The notes beneath the pieces were generated by a model, which saw only the letters and a list, made by a program, of their open reading frames with translations, was not told where the DNA came from and did no database searches. This document shows, piece by piece, positions 4,853-14,897 of a stretch of DNA of 28,557 bases. Both the position numbers and the translations under genes were made by a program. Origin of the DNA: Deltaproteobacteria bacterium Ga0077550. GTDB taxonomy: Bacteria > Myxococcota_A > Polyangia > Nannocystales > Nannocystaceae. The first letter of the stretch is position 1. The number at the start of each line of letters is the position of its first letter. The stretch covers positions 1-28,557 of the forward strand of contig LNFB01000258.1 of the NCBI GenBank assembly GCA_001464385.1. The letters are read 5' to 3'.

Positions 4853-5023
4853 GTTGCGGGATCAGGCTACGTAGATCGCTCGACGGTCCACGTCCGCGGA
4901 TGTCCCACCCACGGCGAGCGCGACGCACAGCAGTTCGATGCATCGACCAGGATCGGCAGGAACTCGCGGGGGGTGTCGTGGAACAACGGGGTTCGCTGGC
5001 GTCACGCCGCCACCGACACCGCC

Positions 5024-6700
5024 ATGTCCACCGCACCTCGCCGTCCGCATCACCGCACCATCACCGTCGCCCACGTCGCCGTGCTCGGCACCTCGCTGCT
5101 CGCCGCGTGCGACGAGGCGAGGGACACCCGCGACGACGGGGGCGCCGGCATCTCGGGCGTCGACGACGTCGCCCCACGCACGCTCGAGGAGATGTTCGCC
5201 GAGGCCGCGGACGACTACGACGTGCCGATGCCGCTGCTGCTCGCGATCGGCCACGTCGAGACGCGGTGGCAGATGATCGCCGGGTCCGACGAGTTCGAGC
5301 ACGGCGCGCCGGCGGTCGGCGTCATGGGGCTGCGCGGCGATCGGATCGCCGAGGCGGCCGCCCTCGCCGGGCTCGATCCTGCGGAGGTGGCCGCGGATCC
5401 CCACGCCAACATCCGCGCCGCGGCGGCGTGGTTGGCCGACCGCGCCGATGCGGCCGGGATGGAGGACCGCACGGACCTCGGCGCGTGGGCGGACGTCGTC
5501 GCCGAGTGGAGCGGACTGTCGCAGGACTGGGCGCGCGCGGCCTACGTCTACGTCGAGGTCTATCCGCGCCTGCGCGAGGGCGCCGTCGAGTACGACGCCG
5601 AGGGAGAGGTCATCGCGGAGCTCGAGCCCACCGAGGCGTATCCCAACTTCACCGTGCCGCCGCCCGAGCCGGCGCTCGCCGCCGGCCCCGACTACGAGCT
5701 GTCGGTGTGGCGGCCGTCGCCCAACACCAGCTCGCGGCCGGCGGGCAACGCAGGCAAGCGCGCGATGATCATCATCCACACGTGCGAGGGCAACTACGTC
5801 GGCTGCTACAGCTGGCTGGCGAACGCGCAGTCGGGCGTCAGCGCCCACTACGTGGTCAACTCCACGGGCACCGAGATCTCGCAGCTCGTCCCCGAGTCCA
5901 AGAAGGGATGGCACATCAGCGCGAAGTACAACTGCGCGCTCAACGACGACCACGACTGCGGTCGCAACGGCGCATCGAGCAACAACTTCACGATCGGCAT
6001 CGAGCACGCCGGGTTCGGTGACCAGGCATCGTGGGACGATGGCCTCATCGATGCGTCGGCGCGGTTGGTCTGCAACATCGCGCGGGACAACGGCATCCCG
6101 ATCGACGACGTCCACATCGTCGGTCACGGCCGGCTGCAGCCGAACAACCGCACCGACCCCGGGCCGAACTGGCCGTGGGCCGAGTACCTCGACCTCGCGC
6201 GGCAGCACTGCGACGAGGCCCAGCCGGAGCCGGAGCCGGAGCCGGATCCCGATCCGCAGCCGCAGCCCGACGTGCCGGCGACGATCGTCGTCGACAACGA
6301 CAACGCCAACAACGATGCGACCTTCGCGATGGCCGCTGCCTCCAACGCGTGGACGAAGACCAGCGCCACGGCCGGCTTCAACGGCACGAACTACCTCTAC
6401 GGCAGCTTCGCCGAGGTGTCGGATCCGGTGTCGTTCTGGTTCTACGCCCCGCAGGCGGGCGTGCGTACGATCGACGCCCGGTGGACCGCGGGCACCAATC
6501 GCACCACCTCTGCGGCGTTCGTCGCCTTCGATGCCGCGGGCAACAGCCTCGGGGTGGCCTACGCCAACCAGACGACCAACGGCGGGGCGTGGCGCGAGCT
6601 CGGCAGCTTCGCCTTCACGGCGGGGTGGAACCGCGTCGCCGTGTCGCGCTGGGGCGGAGGATCGAAGGTCGTGATCGCAGACGCGATCCGGGTGCGATAG
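5024..6700 (+). CDS. multi-domain peptidoglycan hydrolase lipoprotein (lysozyme/SLT-like N-domain + N-acetylmuramoyl-L-alanine amidase (Amidase_2/PGRP) + C-terminal beta-sandwich binding domain)
   Basis: ORF 4973..6700. The lipoprotein signal peptide begins at ATG 5024 (MSTAPRRPHHRTITVAHVAVLGTSLLAAC). The N-terminal domain resembles a lytic transglycosylase: AIGHVETRW...GAPAVGVMGL...ANIRAAAAWL. The central Amidase_2 signatures are KRAMIIIHTCEGNY, SAHYVVNSTG, NNFTIGIEHAG and VGHGRLQPNNRTDPGPNWPW. An EPEPEPDPDPQPQP linker follows, then a ~140-aa Trp/Thr/Asn-rich C-terminal domain that may be golvesin-C-like (low certainty). Confidence 0.75.
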   Translation: MSTAPRRPHHRTITVAHVAVLGTSLLAACDEARDTRDDGGAGISGVDDVAPRTLEEMFAEAADDYDVPMPLLLAIGHVETRWQMIAGSDEFEHGAPAVGVMGLRGDRIAEAAALAGLDPAEVAADPHANIRAAAAWLADRADAAGMEDRTDLGAWADVVAEWSGLSQDWARAAYVYVEVYPRLREGAVEYDAEGEVIAELEPTEAYPNFTVPPPEPALAAGPDYELSVWRPSPNTSSRPAGNAGKRAMIIIHTCEGNYVGCYSWLANAQSGVSAHYVVNSTGTEISQLVPESKKGWHISAKYNCALNDDHDCGRNGASSNNFTIGIEHAGFGDQASWDDGLIDASARLVCNIARDNGIPIDDVHIVGHGRLQPNNRTDPGPNWPWAEYLDLARQHCDEAQPEPEPEPDPDPQPQPDVPATIVVDNDNANNDATFAMAAASNAWTKTSATAGFNGTNYLYGSFAEVSDPVSFWFYAPQAGVRTIDARWTAGTNRTTSAAFVAFDAAGNSLGVAYANQTTNGGAWRELGSFAFTAGWNRVAVSRWGGGSKVVIADAIRVR

Positions 6701-6767: not shown

Positions 6768-9263
6768 TCAGGGCTTGGGCGCCTTGCGCCGCTCCCACGC
6801 GCCGTGGCGCTTCTTCTCCCACGGCTTGATCTCGCGCTCGTCGAGCAACGGCAGCCCGTCTCGCGCGCGGATCTCGTTCGAGAGCTGGCCGAGGACCGCG
6901 CGGTCGCAGTGCTCGGTGTACGCGACCTCCTCGCGACCGGTGCGCGCGAGCAGCTCCTCGGCGACGTAGTAGCCGTTCTTCGCCATCTGCTCGGGCGTCG
7001 GGATCCGGTACGTGATCTTGACGAGCTCGACCTTCGCCGGGCCGACGCCGCCGTGATCGCGGGCCCACTGCCGGCACTGCCAGCGCGCGAACCACTTGCG
7101 GTACCAGTCACCACCGCCGGACTCGCCGCCGATGATGCGGCGGTTCATCTTGCGCAGCCGGTCGTTCCAGATCCACGGGATCGGCTTGCGCTCCTCGGCG
7201 TAGACATCGCTGCGCATGTCCCAGACGTGCCCGTCGTGATCCGTGACGAGCACCTTCATGAACACGTTGCTGCGCGGGGGGTTGGGCGCGAACATGCCCC
7301 AGCCCTGCTCGGTCGTGGTCCGCGTGAGCCACATCGTGAACACGCCGCGCGCCGGGCCCCGGAAGCTCTGCAGACAGTCCTTGTCGGGGAGCAGCCACGT
7401 CGCGACCGCGGTGAGGTGCCAGGCGATGCCGAAGCTCACCACGAACCGGCCGAGCGCGCCGTAGGCCCACGGTGCCGGGGTCGCGGCGATCGTGGTGTTC
7501 GCCTCGGAGGTCGCGGTGTCGCGGGCCTGACGGGCGCGGACCCACGCGACGCCGGCGAGGAACACTGCGGTGGCCACCCAGATCCAGCGGAAGTCCCACT
7601 TCGGCGCGAGCTCGACGCGCACGACGACGCCCGCGACGACGCCTGCGAGGCCGGTGTACAGCGCCCACATCGGCAGCCGCGAGGGGTTGCGCTGCAGCGA
7701 CGGCAGGCGCGGATCCTCGGCCGGCAGCACCGGCTCGCCGCGGGCGACCGACGCCGGGATGAACGGCACCTTCCACAGCGCGAGCCGGTGGCCGACGTCG
7801 CGGAGCAGGCTCGCGATCTCGCGGCCCTGGAGGAACGCGAACGTCGCCGACAACATGCCGGTCTGGAACTGACCGACGCTCATCAGCGTGAAGATGTGGG
7901 CGTGGAAGGCGAGGTGCCAGACCAGCAGCACGCGCCGACCGAAGAACCACTTGCACATCCACTCGCGATCGATGGTCACCGGCCGTGACAGCGCGCGGCC
8001 GAACACCGCGTGCAGCACGATCGGACGGTGCTCGAGCTTGCGCCACAGCAGCCACAGCGCGCCCCAGAGCCCCACCCAGAGGCCGACGAACGTGCCCGCG
8101 CCGATGGCCGGGGTGTAGTGGACCGGCCACGCGGTGTAGACCAGCGCGGCGGTGAGGCCGATGAGCGCCGCGAACGAGGCCCGCGCCAGCCAGCGGCGGG
8201 CACCGACGATGGGCGCGATCTTCTCGCGCATCGCCCACCGCGCGATGATGCCGAAGAGGATCAGCGGGAACGCGGTCTGCCCGATCTTCACCGCCCAGGT
8301 CATCGCCCGCAGCACGGTCGTGCCGGCCAGCGACGCGAGGAACTGCGGCGGCAGCCGGTAGAAGTGATCGAGGTTCATCGCGTAGTACAGCGAGTCGCCC
8401 GCGAGCCACACGCCGCCGGTCTTGAGCGTGCCGGTCGTGACGTAGATCGTCGCGAGCTGGAACATGATCAGCTTGCGCGGCCACGATGGGATGAGCCGGT
8501 AGATCGCCGCGAGGCCCTCGGGGTGCTCGGGGCTCGGGGCCACGCCCGCGCCGTTGCCCGGCCCGCCGCGATCCGACAGCAGCCCCGCGCGGCGCAGCTT
8601 CCGGCAGCGCAGCCAGTTGTCGATGCTGTACGCGTGCCCGCTCTTTGCGAACACGAGGTAGACGAGGAACGTGCGGTAGACGACCTCGGTGCCCTCCCAC
8701 GCCAGCTGGTTGCGGACGAGGATCGAGTTCATCAGGAACCAGGTCGCCGCCGCGGCCAACCGCGTGCGAAAGCCGAGGATCAGGCACAGGCCTGCGACCT
8801 CGAACGCGAACAGATGGGCCCAGAAGAACGTCGGGCTGTCCCAGAAGTAGAGCAGCGACCACTTGGGGCCGCGCAGGAACTGCCAGAGCGCCCCCGCGTC
8901 GAAGAAGCCCCAGGGCTCGTCCGCAGAGGCGCCGTCACCGAAGCCCGCGAACTGCTCGCGGGCGAAGACCTCGCGGGCCACGGCGGTCGGGAAGATGCCC
9001 TCGTCGGTGTAGAGGTACTCGAAGTACTCCCACATGCCGTTGATGTTCGCGACGACGAAGAAGCCGAACACGATGCGGAACACCGCGATGCCGCGGGGAT
9101 CCTCCTTGGTCAGCCACCATCGACGCCACAGATCGGCGTAGGAGATGAACAGCAGGGCGGCGGCGACCGCCGCCCCGAAGAGCAACCAGCCCATCGTGGG
9201 GCCGAGCGCGATCGCCTCCGTGTTGGGGACGCGGTCGGCCAATGCGAGCAGTGTCGAAGCCAT
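6768..9263 (-). CDS. HTTM-domain (vitamin K-dependent gamma-carboxylase-like) polytopic membrane protein, ~830 aa
   Basis: The N-terminal HTTM signature is IAVFRIVFGFFVVANINGMWEYFEYLY, followed by several TM segments. There are at least 8 further hydrophobic helices across the protein. The C-terminal ~180 aa soluble region is W/R-rich (NPPRSNVFMKVLVTDHDGHVWDMRSDVY...WYRKWFARWQCRQWARD). A GGGAG motif lies 5-6 nt upstream of ATG 9263. The total size is comparable to eukaryotic VKGC. Confidence 0.75.
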   Translation of the reverse strand: MASTLLALADRVPNTEAIALGPTMGWLLFGAAVAAALLFISYADLWRRWWLTKEDPRGIAVFRIVFGFFVVANINGMWEYFEYLYTDEGIFPTAVAREVFAREQFAGFGDGASADEPWGFFDAGALWQFLRGPKWSLLYFWDSPTFFWAHLFAFEVAGLCLILGFRTRLAAAATWFLMNSILVRNQLAWEGTEVVYRTFLVYLVFAKSGHAYSIDNWLRCRKLRRAGLLSDRGGPGNGAGVAPSPEHPEGLAAIYRLIPSWPRKLIMFQLATIYVTTGTLKTGGVWLAGDSLYYAMNLDHFYRLPPQFLASLAGTTVLRAMTWAVKIGQTAFPLILFGIIARWAMREKIAPIVGARRWLARASFAALIGLTAALVYTAWPVHYTPAIGAGTFVGLWVGLWGALWLLWRKLEHRPIVLHAVFGRALSRPVTIDREWMCKWFFGRRVLLVWHLAFHAHIFTLMSVGQFQTGMLSATFAFLQGREIASLLRDVGHRLALWKVPFIPASVARGEPVLPAEDPRLPSLQRNPSRLPMWALYTGLAGVVAGVVVRVELAPKWDFRWIWVATAVFLAGVAWVRARQARDTATSEANTTIAATPAPWAYGALGRFVVSFGIAWHLTAVATWLLPDKDCLQSFRGPARGVFTMWLTRTTTEQGWGMFAPNPPRSNVFMKVLVTDHDGHVWDMRSDVYAEERKPIPWIWNDRLRKMNRRIIGGESGGGDWYRKWFARWQCRQWARDHGGVGPAKVELVKITYRIPTPEQMAKNGYYVAEELLARTGREEVAYTEHCDRAVLGQLSNEIRARDGLPLLDEREIKPWEKKRHGAWERRKAPKP

Positions 9264-9279
9264 GGTCGTCTCCCGTCGA

Positions 9280-9510
9280 TCACGAGTGGCTGACGGTGGC
9301 GGGGATGCCGAGCGTCGGCGCGGGCGTGGGCGGGCTCACGACGACGGGCTTGGAGGTCACCGCGCCGGCACCATCGCTCGGCACGCCCGAGCGCTCGAAC
9401 CGGAGGATCCAGCGGTACAGCAGCACGATGAAGACCGCGCCGCCGATCCACAAACCACCCAACGTACCGAAGATTGCAACGTCGATTGCGCGAACCGCCA
9501 GCAAGACCAT
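9280..9510 (-). CDS. small (76 aa) single-pass membrane protein
   Basis: ATG 9510 is preceded by GAGGA with 8-nt spacing. One TM helix is present (VAIFGTLGGLWIGGAVFIVLLY) with a Pro-rich tail. The stop lies 16 nt upstream of the HTTM start on the same strand, so the two are probably co-transcribed. Confidence 0.45.
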   Translation of the reverse strand: MVLLAVRAIDVAIFGTLGGLWIGGAVFIVLLYRWILRFERSGVPSDGAGAVTSKPVVVSPPTPAPTLGIPATVSHS

Positions 9511-9697
9511 GATGGAAATCCTCTGGTCTTGATTGCTACGCCGACGCGCGTCACGGTGGCAGCGATGGCTTTGCGCGCGTGCATGGGCGTCGCGACGCGT
9601 CCACGCACTTGTTTCGCCGCGCGTCCGTGTTCGAGGTCACGACGTCGGGTTGCGCACGCGATCGCGGGCCGAAGTCGCGATCGCGACGCGCCCGCGA

Positions 9698-10609
9698 CTA
9701 CTCGCGGATCGCGACGAACCCGAACCACGCGTCCGCGGTGTCGACACAGCTCACCTCGACGTGCTCCATCGCACTGCCGACCTCGATCGCCGTCGCGCCG
9801 AGGCGACCGGCGCGACGGTCGTAGACGACCTCGGCCGCGTCCCCGTCGAGGAACGCGAGCGCGGCGCGGCGGTCGACCGTGCACGGATCAGAGCAGATGA
9901 AGTCGCACGGCTCCGGGATCGTGGGCTCGATCGGGCACACGTCGTCGAGGAGCTCGACCTGCAGCGGCGCGAAGAACTCGCCGGGGGGCCCGTCGTTGCC
10001 GGCCTCTCCGGGGAGCGCCTCTGCCGACATCGCCGCGAGCATGACCTCGCCGTCGCGACGCACCACCACGTACACGTTGGCCCACCACGGCACGTCGATC
10101 CACACGCCGAGCTCGACCACGTCGCCGAGCGCGAGCGCGCTGTCGCCGACGTTCGACACGTCGAGGGAGTGCGAGCCGTCCTCGCACGCGAGCCCGAGGT
10201 GCAGGGCCGTGCCGACCGGGCCGATCCACGTGAGCACGCAGGTGGTCGTGAGCGAGGTCGGCGCGTGCTCCCAGCCGATGATGCCGTCGACGAGCACGGC
10301 GGTCTCGATGTCGTCCGGCTGCGGATCGCACGCGGACTGCGGCAGATCGCCGGTGGTCGAGTCGTCGCCGGTCGAGCTGGTGTCATCCGCGCCCGTGCCG
10401 GAGACCGAGGTCGAGCTGACCGACATGCCCTCGGTCGTGGTCAGCGTGACCGTGCCGAGGGTCGGATCCAGCGTGTCCGTGACGTCGGTCAGCGTATCCG
10501 GGAGGTCGCTGGTCCAGTCCGTGAGCTCGAAATCGGGCAGGTCGAGCTTGCCCTGGATGCAGCCTGTGAGGGCCATGACGCCGAACCACCCGAGTCGACG
10601 CCCGTTCAT
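9698..10609 (-). CDS. lipoprotein of unknown function (Thr/Asp-rich linker, 8-Cys C-terminal domain)
   Basis: This is ORF 9698..10684 trimmed to ATG 10609 (MNGRRLGWFGVMALTGC|IQG, lipobox LTGC). It has an acidic/Thr-rich low-complexity region and then a ~200-aa domain with 8 Cys. It sits on the same strand upstream of the small membrane protein and the HTTM gene. Confidence 0.6.
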   Translation of the reverse strand: MNGRRLGWFGVMALTGCIQGKLDLPDFELTDWTSDLPDTLTDVTDTLDPTLGTVTLTTTEGMSVSSTSVSGTGADDTSSTGDDSTTGDLPQSACDPQPDDIETAVLVDGIIGWEHAPTSLTTTCVLTWIGPVGTALHLGLACEDGSHSLDVSNVGDSALALGDVVELGVWIDVPWWANVYVVVRRDGEVMLAAMSAEALPGEAGNDGPPGEFFAPLQVELLDDVCPIEPTIPEPCDFICSDPCTVDRRAALAFLDGDAAEVVYDRRAGRLGATAIEVGSAMEHVEVSCVDTADAWFGFVAIRE

Positions 10610-10610
10610 G

Positions 10611-10629
10611 GTTAGCAATGTTAGCAATG
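10611..10629. promoter_or_regulatory. tandem 9-bp AT-rich direct repeat (TTAGCAATG x2) abutting the lipoprotein start codon
   Basis: The sequence is gTTAGCAATGTTAGCAATGg on the + strand and CATTGCTAACATTGCTAACC-ATG on the - strand. It is unusually AT-rich for this genome. It lies in the divergent intergenic region between the lipoprotein (-) and the 2H phosphoesterase (+). Confidence 0.3.
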
Positions 10630-10815
10630 GCCGTGTTGTCATGTCAAGCCCGTCCGTCATTCCGCGTGGGTTCGGGCTCGGCACCCCGAGGGGACACCAC
10701 CGTCGGCCGTGAATGGCTCGGCGGGCCGCGGCGCTTCGGTCGATCGTCCCTCGGAACGGTGACGAATCGGCGCCGAATCGTCCCCCGATTGGCCTCGCGC
10801 TACGCTGGCGGACCC

Positions 10816-12695: not shown

Positions 12696-12926
12696 TGATG
12701 GCGACGGATCGATCGACTCGACTGGTGGCGCTCGTCCAAACGCGGCGGTGTGCCCGGCGTCTCGGTCGTGCGTGGCCGGCCAATCGGCCAACATGCCCTA
12801 CCTACGAGATGCGGCCGTACGCGACGTACGCTTGCCACTTCCCGCACCTGAGTGGTTGACAGGTCGCCGTCGGTCGCCGAGCCTGTCCCGGTCGCCGCTC
12901 GCGAGGCAGGAGGTCGGTTCTCAGGC

Positions 12927-14897
12927 ATGTCAGGTCACGTCTCATTCACCCTTCGAACGTGGTGCGTCACGTGTGTCACCGCAGCGGGAGTTGGACTGGT
13001 GTTCGGCCCCGTCGCGTGTGTACGGGACGACCATGACCCGCTCCCTGCCGGAACCGGATACGCGATGAGCGGGCCGTGCGAGACTGATGGCGAACAAGTC
13101 GTCGCCACCACCGGCGGGGACCACGGCGAAGCCTGGCACAATCCTTTCGGGCCCGATTCCCCCGATTCCTCGGGGGCGGGTGACGACGGTGACGGCCTCC
13201 CCGAGTGGTTCGACGCTGGGATCCCGGACCCGATCCCGTGGCCCTACGACTACCCGATGCCCGACCCACAGGTGCAGCCCGATCCGACTTGGTGGGAGTT
13301 CGATCCGGCGACGGCGTTCCACTACCGGTCGGCGACGACCAAGGAACTCGCGGAGAACGGGTGGCACCCAAGCACCCTGCTGGTTGTGCCGACAGACGCG
13401 GCTCGCGATGCATTGGCCCGAGGCGCGAGATCGACCGTCCTTGCGTTGCCTATTGCAGAAGACGCCGTGCGACCGCAGGTGAACCTGGCGTTTGTTGAAC
13501 TCGACCTCGAGTTGCGAGCCTCCCATGGGCCGGTCGCGTTTCCAACCCTCAACATCGACCAGAATGGACGTCGAACGCGAGTGGTACGGCGCCCGAATCT
13601 TCACTTCTATGTGACGCGAGAGTTGGACTGGAATGAGGTGGATGATATCGCGGCCAAGGCCATGGCCAGCAGCGATGGGGCGACGGAATTGACCGGCGCA
13701 ATGGGGGATCGCGTGTTCGCATTTCGCGGCCCGTTCCCGATCGATGGGTCCGTCCATCGCGTCGATATCGCGCCTCCTCGAGGCTCATCATTCTGGTTGC
13801 TCCATACAGAGTTCGGGCCGCCGTTGATGACCTCGCGTGCCCGGGTGGGTGTCGAACTCGTGCGCCAGGCCCGGGGGGCGCAGGGACACCCCGCGAACCG
13901 TGACGCTGCCGACTTAGATGTTGCAGTTGCGCCTGAAACGACCGCAAGTGCCCTCGGCTACCAGTGCGCAGACGGATTTGACAACGACGTCGACGGCAGA
14001 GCTGATTCGTGTGACTACGAGTGCGTTCCTCATCCGGAATTCGGCGGCCTCGAGCATCAGCACACCGCGCTGTCCGAGTACAGCAAGGATATCGCACTTC
14101 TCGGCGACGCTGTGTTCTGCGCGGAGAACCCATCCACAGCTCTCACGATGATGGCGACATGGGGAATGGGAGGAGCGCAGTTGCTGAGCTGGATCGAAGC
14201 GCCTGAGCCGTACGCCGGGGATGTCCGGACTCCGCCGTTTCGGCTCGCGATGCTTGGCTGCATCACGCTTGACTCCCTGAGCGACGCTCGGGCGTGTCAT
14301 AGCGACGCGGCTGAGTGTCCCGATGGGTACCCATTCACGGGTACCGCACGGAACTGGGACGCGATTGCTCTCGCCGCATGGGACGCTGTCGAAACGCATG
14401 TGACGAATCTCGATCCGGCGGACGTGCATCCGGTGAATTTTGCCGTCGTGGTGACGATGGAACAGCACACTGGGAATCTGAGCGATGGGGGACTCGGGAA
14501 TTTTCCGGATTCCGAGCACCTCGGACGCAACGGCACCGCGGTCGTCTGGTCCGGAGCGGATGATATTCTCGAACTCGAGCGTGTTGTTGCGCACGAGATC
14601 GGTCACACGCTTGGCCTTGCGCACGACACGGCCGCAGAATACGGAGTCTCAGGCATCATGAATCCTACCCACAGCCCGTGGGCGCCAGTGCTCGATTGGG
14701 ATGCTCCCTCGGCATACAAAGACACGAACAACCCAGGTACCTTTCTTGCGCAGGGCGAGGTGTGGGGCAGGTTGGTCGGGGACAAGTGGTTTCCGAGACC
14801 TCGCGGGTTCAAACTCTCGCCCTGTAGCTCGGATGCCGACTGCGAGGGTGGGTTCCCCGGCCTCGAATGCGTAGACGGTGTGGGGTGGTGCAAGTGA
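12927..14897 (+). CDS. secreted metzincin-type zinc metalloprotease (HExxHxxGxxH + Met-turn), 656 aa
   Basis: ORF 12852..14897. The start is ATG 12927 (MSGHVSFTLRTWCVTCVTAAGVGLVFGPVAC...), with GGAGGT 13 nt upstream. The C-terminal catalytic signature is VVAHEIGHTLGLAHD, followed by SGIMNP (Met-turn). Several Cys-rich segments are present, such as CADGFDNDVDGRADSCDYEC and a C-terminal CSSDADCEGGFPGLECVDGVGWC. GC content is ~60% versus ~73% in the flanks. Confidence 0.75.
   Translation: MSGHVSFTLRTWCVTCVTAAGVGLVFGPVACVRDDHDPLPAGTGYAMSGPCETDGEQVVATTGGDHGEAWHNPFGPDSPDSSGAGDDGDGLPEWFDAGIPDPIPWPYDYPMPDPQVQPDPTWWEFDPATAFHYRSATTKELAENGWHPSTLLVVPTDAARDALARGARSTVLALPIAEDAVRPQVNLAFVELDLELRASHGPVAFPTLNIDQNGRRTRVVRRPNLHFYVTRELDWNEVDDIAAKAMASSDGATELTGAMGDRVFAFRGPFPIDGSVHRVDIAPPRGSSFWLLHTEFGPPLMTSRARVGVELVRQARGAQGHPANRDAADLDVAVAPETTASALGYQCADGFDNDVDGRADSCDYECVPHPEFGGLEHQHTALSEYSKDIALLGDAVFCAENPSTALTMMATWGMGGAQLLSWIEAPEPYAGDVRTPPFRLAMLGCITLDSLSDARACHSDAAECPDGYPFTGTARNWDAIALAAWDAVETHVTNLDPADVHPVNFAVVVTMEQHTGNLSDGGLGNFPDSEHLGRNGTAVVWSGADDILELERVVAHEIGHTLGLAHDTAAEYGVSGIMNPTHSPWAPVLDWDAPSAYKDTNNPGTFLAQGEVWGRLVGDKWFPRPRGFKLSPCSSDADCEGGFPGLECVDGVGWCK

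Follow-up and report, generated by a model that had tools for sequence, protein, structure and literature searches.

On the minus strand of contig LNFB01000258.1 (assembly GCA_001464385.1, Deltaproteobacteria bacterium Ga0077550, family Nannocystaceae), a gene encodes an 831-amino-acid polytopic membrane protein, which raises the question of whether this protein is a relative of the vitamin K-dependent gamma-carboxylase (VKGC) and, if so, what it might modify. The window analyzed here is the 28,557-nt stretch at positions 1 to 28,557 of this contig. A preliminary description of the locus had seen in it an HTTM protein belonging to a three-gene, envelope-modifying cluster together with a 76-amino-acid single-pass membrane protein and a lipoprotein. 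As regards structure and homology, we are confident that the 831-amino-acid protein is truly related to GGCX, the VKGC of humans, although this bacterial relative is a very remote one. The best explanation overall, to which we give about even chances of being right, is an HTTM/VKGC-type enzyme that would use menaquinol and O2 for strong-base chemistry on a substrate other than glutamate, with the 76-amino-acid protein as its small subunit.

The protein had been said to begin with a textbook HTTM domain, which overstates the match. The Pfam HTTM family (PF05090) reached 23.2 bits (E = 5.8e-5, residues 257-310), below the gathering cutoff of 27.7 bits, and a match at E ≤ 0.01 was seen for 14 of 29 close homologs (52-78% identity), with 2e-7 as the lowest E value. 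HMMER searches against PDB sequences did not retrieve GGCX, either with the single protein or with a 29-sequence family profile, the NCBIfam scan of the protein gave nothing useful, and DoxX matched weakly (E = 0.026 and 0.00058). Homology to GGCX emerged only in a fold search and with the profile once it had been widened by bridging relatives. With the AlphaFold2 (AF2) model as query, the top 16 PDB matches in Foldseek were all human GGCX, with E values down to 1.5e-7 over about 730 aligned columns. An exhaustive family-profile search yielded 3787 proteins at E ≤ 1e-3; among them are relatives of about 580 and about 800 amino acids, found at E values of 1e-53, that lie above the Pfam HTTM cutoff (for example P0219, 54.7 bits). 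Among 53 remote relatives, 32 matched Pfam HTTM, and the sole other recurrent family was DUF5819 (PF19136), matched by 10 of them at E ≤ 0.1 (best 1.9e-4); the one relative whose DUF5819 score was inspected (P0148) had 18 bits, below the cutoff of 27.1. Finally, hhalign gave a probability of 15% for alignment A1 by itself against GGCX, and of 94.4% (E = 9.2e-8, 191 aligned columns) when the family was combined with 22 bridging relatives, the GGCX sequence having been verified against PDB chains. Profile-profile comparison and fold likeness to human GGCX both place the protein in the HTTM/VKGC superfamily. Also, the size close to that of metazoan VKGC pointed out previously is borne out (831 amino acids versus 758 in human).

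In GGCX, Lys218 acts as the base that takes a proton from the hydroquinone, with Trp223 stacked on this lysine and Asp263 adjoining it; Asn159, His160 and Tyr395 grip the carboxylate of the glutamate, Phe299 stacks on CO2, and Met401 and Met402 shut the pocket (PMC12647623). These residues were mapped onto the 831-amino-acid protein by two independent routes, hhalign and the ungapped Pfam HTTM coordinates of the matching fragments of both proteins. The routes agree in equating K281 with Lys218, W286 with Trp223 and W189 with Trp157, and in placing E190-G191-T192 opposite Asn158-Asn159-His160. N185-Q186 was also considered as the counterpart of Asn159-His160 and was ruled out, as both routes give G191-T192. 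Conservation was counted over 96 paralogous genes from related loci, namely the full genes at the best 80 loci of a one-genome-per-species scan (204 encoding stretches) and at further related loci. K281 and W286 are each present in 94 of 95 paralogs, G191 in 95/95, T192 in 91/95, E190 in 92/95 and an acidic residue at position 193 (Glu or Asp) in 95/95. The remaining correspondences come from alignments that are not significant alone. A local hhalign match with E values of 0.04-0.32 aligns F466 with Phe299 and G464 with Gly297, both residues being kept in all 95 paralogs. The best local match (E = 0.24) to LL9, a lumenal loop of GGCX at residues 393-404, sets W655-G-M657-F658 on Trp399-Asp-Met401-Met402 and T651 at Tyr395; W655, M657 and F658 occur in 94-95 of 96 paralogs. 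Taken together, these weak alignments and the near-invariance of the residues lend some support to retained equivalents of Phe299 and of the Met loop. By this mapping, the part of the site that activates the quinol has been retained, and the glutamate-holding part is systematically changed and now acidic. Of the His and Lys residues named in the preliminary description as critical for VKGC, the lysine is conserved and the histidine is lost.

These replacements bear directly on the view implied by that description, i.e., a classical glutamate carboxylase. Such an enzyme would fit the GGCX fold and the Lys/Trp/Phe centre, and genuine bacterial GGCX orthologues with conserved catalytic residues exist, Myxococcota (Chondromyces) included (PMC12647623). 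However, the Asn159-His160 pair, which binds Glu and is needed for CO2-coupled carboxylation, has become G191-T192 in 91-95 of 95 paralogs, and a Thr stands at the position proposed for Tyr395 (non-significant alignment). Also, the acidic residues E190 and E/D193 beside the site, nearly or fully invariant, would repel a carboxylate, and no Glu-rich substrate is encoded nearby, the adjacent lipoprotein being Asp/Thr-rich and unconserved. A classical glutamate carboxylase is thus improbable.

The same changes could suggest that the protein is not an oxygenase, but a quinone-binding or structural protein of the DoxX/HTTM group, for example a maturation factor, a chaperone or a thiol-redox partner. 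The weak DoxX matches, the substrate site unlike that of GGCX and the name "DoxX/SURF4 family" given by JGI to some members are in line with this, as is the fusion of other bacterial HTTM proteins to DCC-type thiol oxidoreductase domains (bioRxiv 10.64898/2026.08.19.745780). Nevertheless, the Lys and Trp residues are near-invariant over about 12 paralog clades, and likewise F466 and the W-x-M-F loop, for which the mapping to GGCX is weaker; this conservation favours retained chemistry over a scaffold. A thiol-redox role is further opposed by the lack of any CxxC motif, the sole near-invariant periplasmic cysteines, C730 and C786, being 56 residues apart. We regard a non-oxygenase role as unlikely, although it comes first among the alternatives.

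The second component of our preferred explanation is the 76-amino-acid protein. Its gene stops exactly 16 nt ahead of the ATG of the large gene and the spacer, TCGACGGGAGACGACC, contains a GGGAG ribosome-binding site, so that the small open reading frame (ORF) directly upstream and its good ribosome-binding site are as first reported; AGAGGA sits before the ATG of the small gene itself. Apart from the window's own contigs, tblastn detected the small protein in 17 loci, and in each its gene immediately precedes the large one. The spacer measures between -4 and 24 nt in all but one of the 18 loci, and 72 nt in the remaining one. The small protein accompanies 17 of the 18 members of the window's clade and none of the 77 other paralog copies examined; it is therefore a genuine, conserved partner, and the absence from orthologous loci that would have refuted the preliminary description is not observed. 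One locus (L052) carries the small ORF yet clusters apart, possibly through a frameshift.

Within the small protein, M1, L3, D10, A12, I13, F14, G18, L20, W21, G24, F27, R33, W34 and R37 are invariant. The helix has a Gly-rich face, made up largely of small residues, and is followed by the positive cluster YRWILRFER; the tail is Pro-rich and variable (13-47 residues, 23% mean pairwise identity) and holds no conserved acidic cluster. The protein has no Pfam match and no extramembrane domain. In the large protein, position 326 is the sole column separating the window's clade from the others, with Lys in 18/18 clade members and His in 75/75 other paralogs. The restriction of this intramembrane Lys to genes whose partner has an invariant Asp suggests a pairing of D10 with K326, and the two residues may form an intramembrane charge pair.

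Instead of a subunit, the small protein could be the substrate or a precursor peptide of the large one, in a pair resembling those of peptides made by the ribosome and modified after translation (RiPPs). The genes are tightly coupled and clade-specific, and VKGC substrates bear a recognition peptide beside the modified region (PMC12647623). However, it is the transmembrane helix that is conserved, and the tail is the poorly conserved part described above; also, the charge pattern of YRWILRFER predicts a cytoplasmic tail, on the opposite face from the active site. We therefore hold a substrate role to be improbable as well. The small-residue face of the helix, the YRWILRFER cluster and the unconserved tail together point to a subunit that is embedded in the membrane and has its tail in the cytoplasm; the small protein is rather probably a subunit of the enzyme.

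The lipoprotein gene, the third member of the supposed cluster, lies upstream on the same strand. As for the Cys-containing lipoprotein, a plausible signal, MNGRRLGWFGVMALTGC, was read from the sequence, and its lipobox (...VMALTGC) agrees with [LVI][ASTVI][GAS]C. A three-gene, envelope-modifying operon would account for the adjacency of all three genes on one strand. Nevertheless, the lipoprotein is missing from the 16 other small-ORF loci; like the 575-amino-acid protein and the 252-amino-acid ORF of the neighbourhood, it was found only in contigs of the same species and in a single relative with 94% identity (L013). It is separated from the small gene by a 187-nt gap with GC-rich palindromes past its stop codon, and it has its own promoter-like site on the minus strand (10618-10647, TTGACA-18 nt-TAACAT with a TG extension), which ends 8 nt before an ATG at 10609. 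Use of this site would leave the mRNA of the lipoprotein with almost no leader. As the lipoprotein is not conserved, the conserved unit comprises two genes and not three; the lipoprotein is an unrelated neighbour, the three-gene operon is very improbable, and the envelope-modifying role proposed for it finds no support.

Since the quinone-activating residues are kept and the glutamate-holding residues are lost, the large protein is probably a quinol-using enzyme with a non-glutamate substrate. Menaquinone is the respiratory quinone of this lineage. We propose a polytopic inner-membrane enzyme that would bind the cell's own menaquinol and whose active site would lie on the periplasmic side of the membrane. 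K281 would deprotonate the menaquinol, and O2 would turn the quinol into a strongly basic oxygenated intermediate, as in GGCX, leaving menaquinone epoxide. The strong base would then take a proton from a periplasm-exposed substrate other than a Gla-type (gamma-carboxyglutamate-type) glutamate, possibly followed by CO2 addition. The 76-amino-acid protein would most likely be an accessory subunit that is embedded in the membrane and restricted to this ortholog clade, with its helix packing against the enzyme and its Asp10 perhaps pairing with Lys326. The menaquinol/O2 strong-base chemistry itself, whether as an oxygenase or as a carboxylase, is a conceivable but somewhat doubtful part of this proposal, read from residue conservation.

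Several observations weigh against this explanation. The HTTM score of the protein falls short of the family cutoff, the HMMER searches missed GGCX, and the F466/Phe299 and LL9 alignments are not significant when taken alone. No counterpart of GGCX Asp263 could be identified in the 831-amino-acid protein. No gene context conserved across orthologous loci was found beyond the small ORF, and no substrate candidate was found in the gene neighbourhood. Within the window's clade, the member that diverges most (L022, RFGU01000195.1, 61% identity) retains K326, yet its large gene is not preceded by a small ORF. Also, the subunit role of the small protein and the D10-K326 pair are both steps that we infer. 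The alternatives are ranked, in decreasing order, as a non-oxygenase role, a classical Glu carboxylase, the small protein as substrate and the three-gene module.

Comparison with known systems helps to situate the protein. The closest solved structure, human GGCX, shares with it a comparable length, the DPxxxAxFRxxFG motif, the Lys/Trp pair kept as K281/W286, probably Phe299 and the W-x-M-M loop (F466 and W655-G-M-F), and the inferred topology, with the C-terminal domain outside the cytoplasm. In contrast, identity is only 11-15%, Asn159-His160 is replaced by Gly-Thr, Tyr395 by Thr in a non-significant alignment, and Asp263 is not identifiable. Unlike GGCX, the bacterial protein also has an extra N-terminal transmembrane helix, a Gly-rich cytoplasmic loop of about 30 residues, two transmembrane-bearing insertions and a separate small transmembrane partner.

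The bacterial proteins matching Pfam HTTM typically have about 300-450 amino acids, for example SdpB of Bacillus subtilis. They have the transmembrane core in common with the 831-amino-acid protein, which is twice as long, has its core interrupted by insertions and falls below the Pfam cutoff. VKGC chemistry is unusual in that a very strong base is made by oxygenating a quinol. To our knowledge, only two substrate types are known for it, Glu in animals and Asp in the bacterial enzyme MloH. This enzyme, from the malonomycin pathway of Streptomyces, consists of an HTTM part fused to a DUF5819-like region and alpha-carboxylates Asp (PMC12186529; bioRxiv 10.64898/2026.08.19.745780); it is encoded in a polyketide synthase-nonribosomal peptide synthetase gene cluster, and its GGCX catalytic residues are reported to be kept (PMC12647623). 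The statement that bacterial HTTM proteins have no known biochemical function no longer holds in full, MloH having been characterised (PMC12186529, PMC12647623). MloH is the closest characterised bacterial enzyme, and the protein studied here resembles it as a bacterial HTTM enzyme with a presumably non-Glu substrate. Judging from the published descriptions of MloH, our gene differs in having no biosynthetic neighbours within +/-8 kb and no Asn-His pair. The closest two-piece architecture is that of bacterial HTTM + DUF5819 systems, in which a membrane HTTM protein has a single-pass partner encoded next to it and conserved Lys, Trp and Phe residues surround a predicted menaquinol pocket (bioRxiv 10.64898/2026.08.19.745780). 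Here too, the gene of a single-pass partner is adjacent, and the C-terminal part of relatives is weakly DUF5819-like. However, the DUF5819-like part appears fused to the enzyme, and the partner is a 76-amino-acid protein with no extramembrane domain.

The architecture of the large protein was examined on the AF2 model and the hhalign blocks (Table 1). An extra transmembrane helix (residues 21-41) precedes the DPxxxAxFRxxFG motif. The parts that correspond to HTTM lie at residues 44-304 and about 453-494, and insertions between them add transmembrane helices; residues 305-442, about 100 residues longer than the GGCX equivalent, hold extra transmembrane helices and a beta hairpin. The strongly conserved Gly/Pro-rich loop at residues 226-257 carries 8 Lys or Arg and is predicted to be cytoplasmic. 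This loop is missing in GGCX and in the relatives of about 580 amino acids, and present in those of about 800. In the AF2 model, transmembrane helices continue to about residue 648 and only the C-terminal 180 residues or so (about 650-831) are soluble, so that the "long C-terminal soluble extension" of the preliminary description is mostly membrane-embedded. This C-terminal domain matched no solved fold, and the fold therefore does not demonstrate that it is equivalent to the lumenal domain of VKGC. Similarly, a Pfam scan of C-terminal fragments gave no match even at E ≤ 10, DUF5819 included; an unrelated known domain, which the preliminary description had considered a possible objection, was thus not detected in this part. 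The GGCX topology was assumed; under it, the predicted cytoplasmic loops are K/R-rich and the predicted periplasmic loops acidic or neutral. These loop charges and the two near-invariant Cys fit with a periplasmic C-terminal domain, and residues 650-831 are probably periplasmic.

Named homologs all belong to the Myxococcota and mostly to the Nannocystaceae (Nannocystis, Pseudenhygromyxa, Paraliomyxa), and the nearest genome bins are Nannocystaceae. At about 58% identity, the 96 full genes separate into 12 clades or more, and a single genome may have 2-5 copies or more (five each in HK-STAS-MYXO-17 and Co_bin.371). Databases already name some members "HTTM domain-containing protein", and nothing specific was found in the literature on HTTM or GGCX in myxobacteria. 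A gene of clade 8 followed by one of clade 3 on the same strand was seen at L042-L045, L049, L056, L060, L063-L068 and L076, and clade 11 followed by clade 5, also in tandem, at L047, L059 and L077. Such tandem clade pairs recur across many Nannocystaceae genomes, cultured Nannocystis species included, which hints at heteromeric or sequentially acting enzymes.

What sets the family apart from GGCX, MloH and the HTTM + DUF5819 pairs is a changed substrate site, together with the insertions, the expansion within one lineage and the very small partner of 76 amino acids. More speculatively, the dozen clades of the Nannocystaceae could be a family of menaquinol/O2 "base-amplifying" enzymes derived from VKGC, which would carboxylate non-glutamate targets, or deprotonate and modify them in another way, on the outer side of the inner membrane; such targets might be lipids, proteins or components of the cell wall. 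Some of these enzymes would have two subunits, the 76-amino-acid helix providing an Asp within the membrane, and others would act as pairs of tandem paralogs. In this full extent the hypothesis is rather unlikely; if true, bacteria would have a vitamin K-dependent modification of a new class. The family thus provides well-defined candidates for vitamin K-type reactions not seen before, and offers a handle on the roles of bacterial HTTM proteins. Also, the annotation of the locus is corrected, in that the protein has no textbook HTTM domain, is in all likelihood not a Gla-forming carboxylase and does not belong to a three-gene module.

Table 1. Coordinates of the features of the locus, in positions of the window, with residue numbers of the encoded protein.
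Feature	Position	Strand	Evidence or remark
Gene of the 831-amino-acid polytopic membrane protein, distant HTTM/VKGC superfamily member	6768..9263	-	stop codon 6768-6770
Soluble C-terminal domain, residues 650-831 (probably periplasmic), with near-invariant C730 and C786	6771..7316	-	
Most conserved family motif TxTxQxWGMFAPNPPRxNVF, residues 649-668, TTTEQGWGMFAPNPPRSNVF	7260..7319	-	hhalign local
Second core segment, residues 453-494, weakly aligned to GGCX 286-327	7782..7907	-	hhalign local, E 0.04-0.32
F466, aligned to Phe299	7866-7868	-	weak hhalign local match, E 0.04-0.32
Stretch between the two GGCX-alignable segments, residues 305-442	7938..8351	-	AF2 secondary structure; hhalign blocks on either side
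K326, inside a transmembrane helix	8286-8288	-	motif aligned with GGCX H256-W-G-G
N-terminal part of the HTTM core, residues 44-304, aligned to GGCX 49-241	8352..9134	-	hhalign
W286, counterpart of Trp223	8406-8408	-	both mapping routes
K281, counterpart of Lys218	8421..8423	-	hhalign and Pfam HTTM profile position 162
Gly/Pro-rich loop LLSxRxGPGxGAGxAP...HPxGL, residues 226-257	8493..8588	-	gap in GGCX (hhalign); conserved in A1
W189-E-G-T-E193 motif, aligned to GGCX W157-N-N159-H160-S	8685..8699	-	both mapping routes
Intergenic spacer, 16 nt, with GGGAG ribosome-binding site	9264..9279	-	sequence reading
Gene of the 76-amino-acid single-pass membrane protein	9280..9510	-	third-position GC (GC3) 0.87; tblastn
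Conserved head of the small protein, residues 1-40	9391-9510	-	mean pairwise identity 65%
D10 of the small protein, invariant, at the helix edge	9481-9483	-	
Intergenic region between lipoprotein and small gene, 187 nt	9511..9697	-	sequence reading; no Rfam match
Lipoprotein gene, lipobox L-T-G-C	9698..10640	-	sequence reading; outside the conserved module

The G+C content of the window is 68-77%, except for 62-65% at 13-15 kb; most long ORFs are therefore spurious and the third-position GC is a useful guide. The 831-amino-acid ORF has a GC3 of 0.96, and a third coding-like minus-strand ORF, that of the lipoprotein (9698..10684, its upstream end being at 10640 or 10684), one of 0.92. Alternative frames overlapping these three ORFs do not have a coding-like composition. 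All three are real and lie where the preliminary description had placed them, and its basic account of them holds.

The palindrome CGCGATCGCG occurs three times at 9657-9715, once in imperfect form, at and just past the stop codon of the lipoprotein gene. The copies could fold as GC-rich hairpins, with no T-run, and may represent a terminator or a protein-binding site. The Rfam search of the window gave no match to an RNA family.

Annotated neighbours within +/-8 kb include an amidase/SLT protein, an FG-GAP protein, a GDSL lipase, an ECF (extracytoplasmic function) sigma factor, a kinase and hypothetical proteins. The first of these, the 575-amino-acid protein (4973-6700, plus strand), combines a weakly matched SLT lytic transglycosylase domain with Amidase_2 and Golvesin_C and a Pro/Glu/Asp-rich linker; its gene is convergent with the HTTM-like gene, and the 252-amino-acid ORF is divergent.

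Further along, the segment 13001-15000 has a G+C content of 0.62-0.65, compared with 0.70-0.77 elsewhere, over a 681-amino-acid ORF (12852-14897, plus strand) with a GC3 of just 0.70 and, in a public gene call, a faint DUF4953 match. This region of low G+C may be a more recent acquisition. Also, identical or near-identical contigs were recovered from activated-carbon and drinking-water-plant metagenomes.

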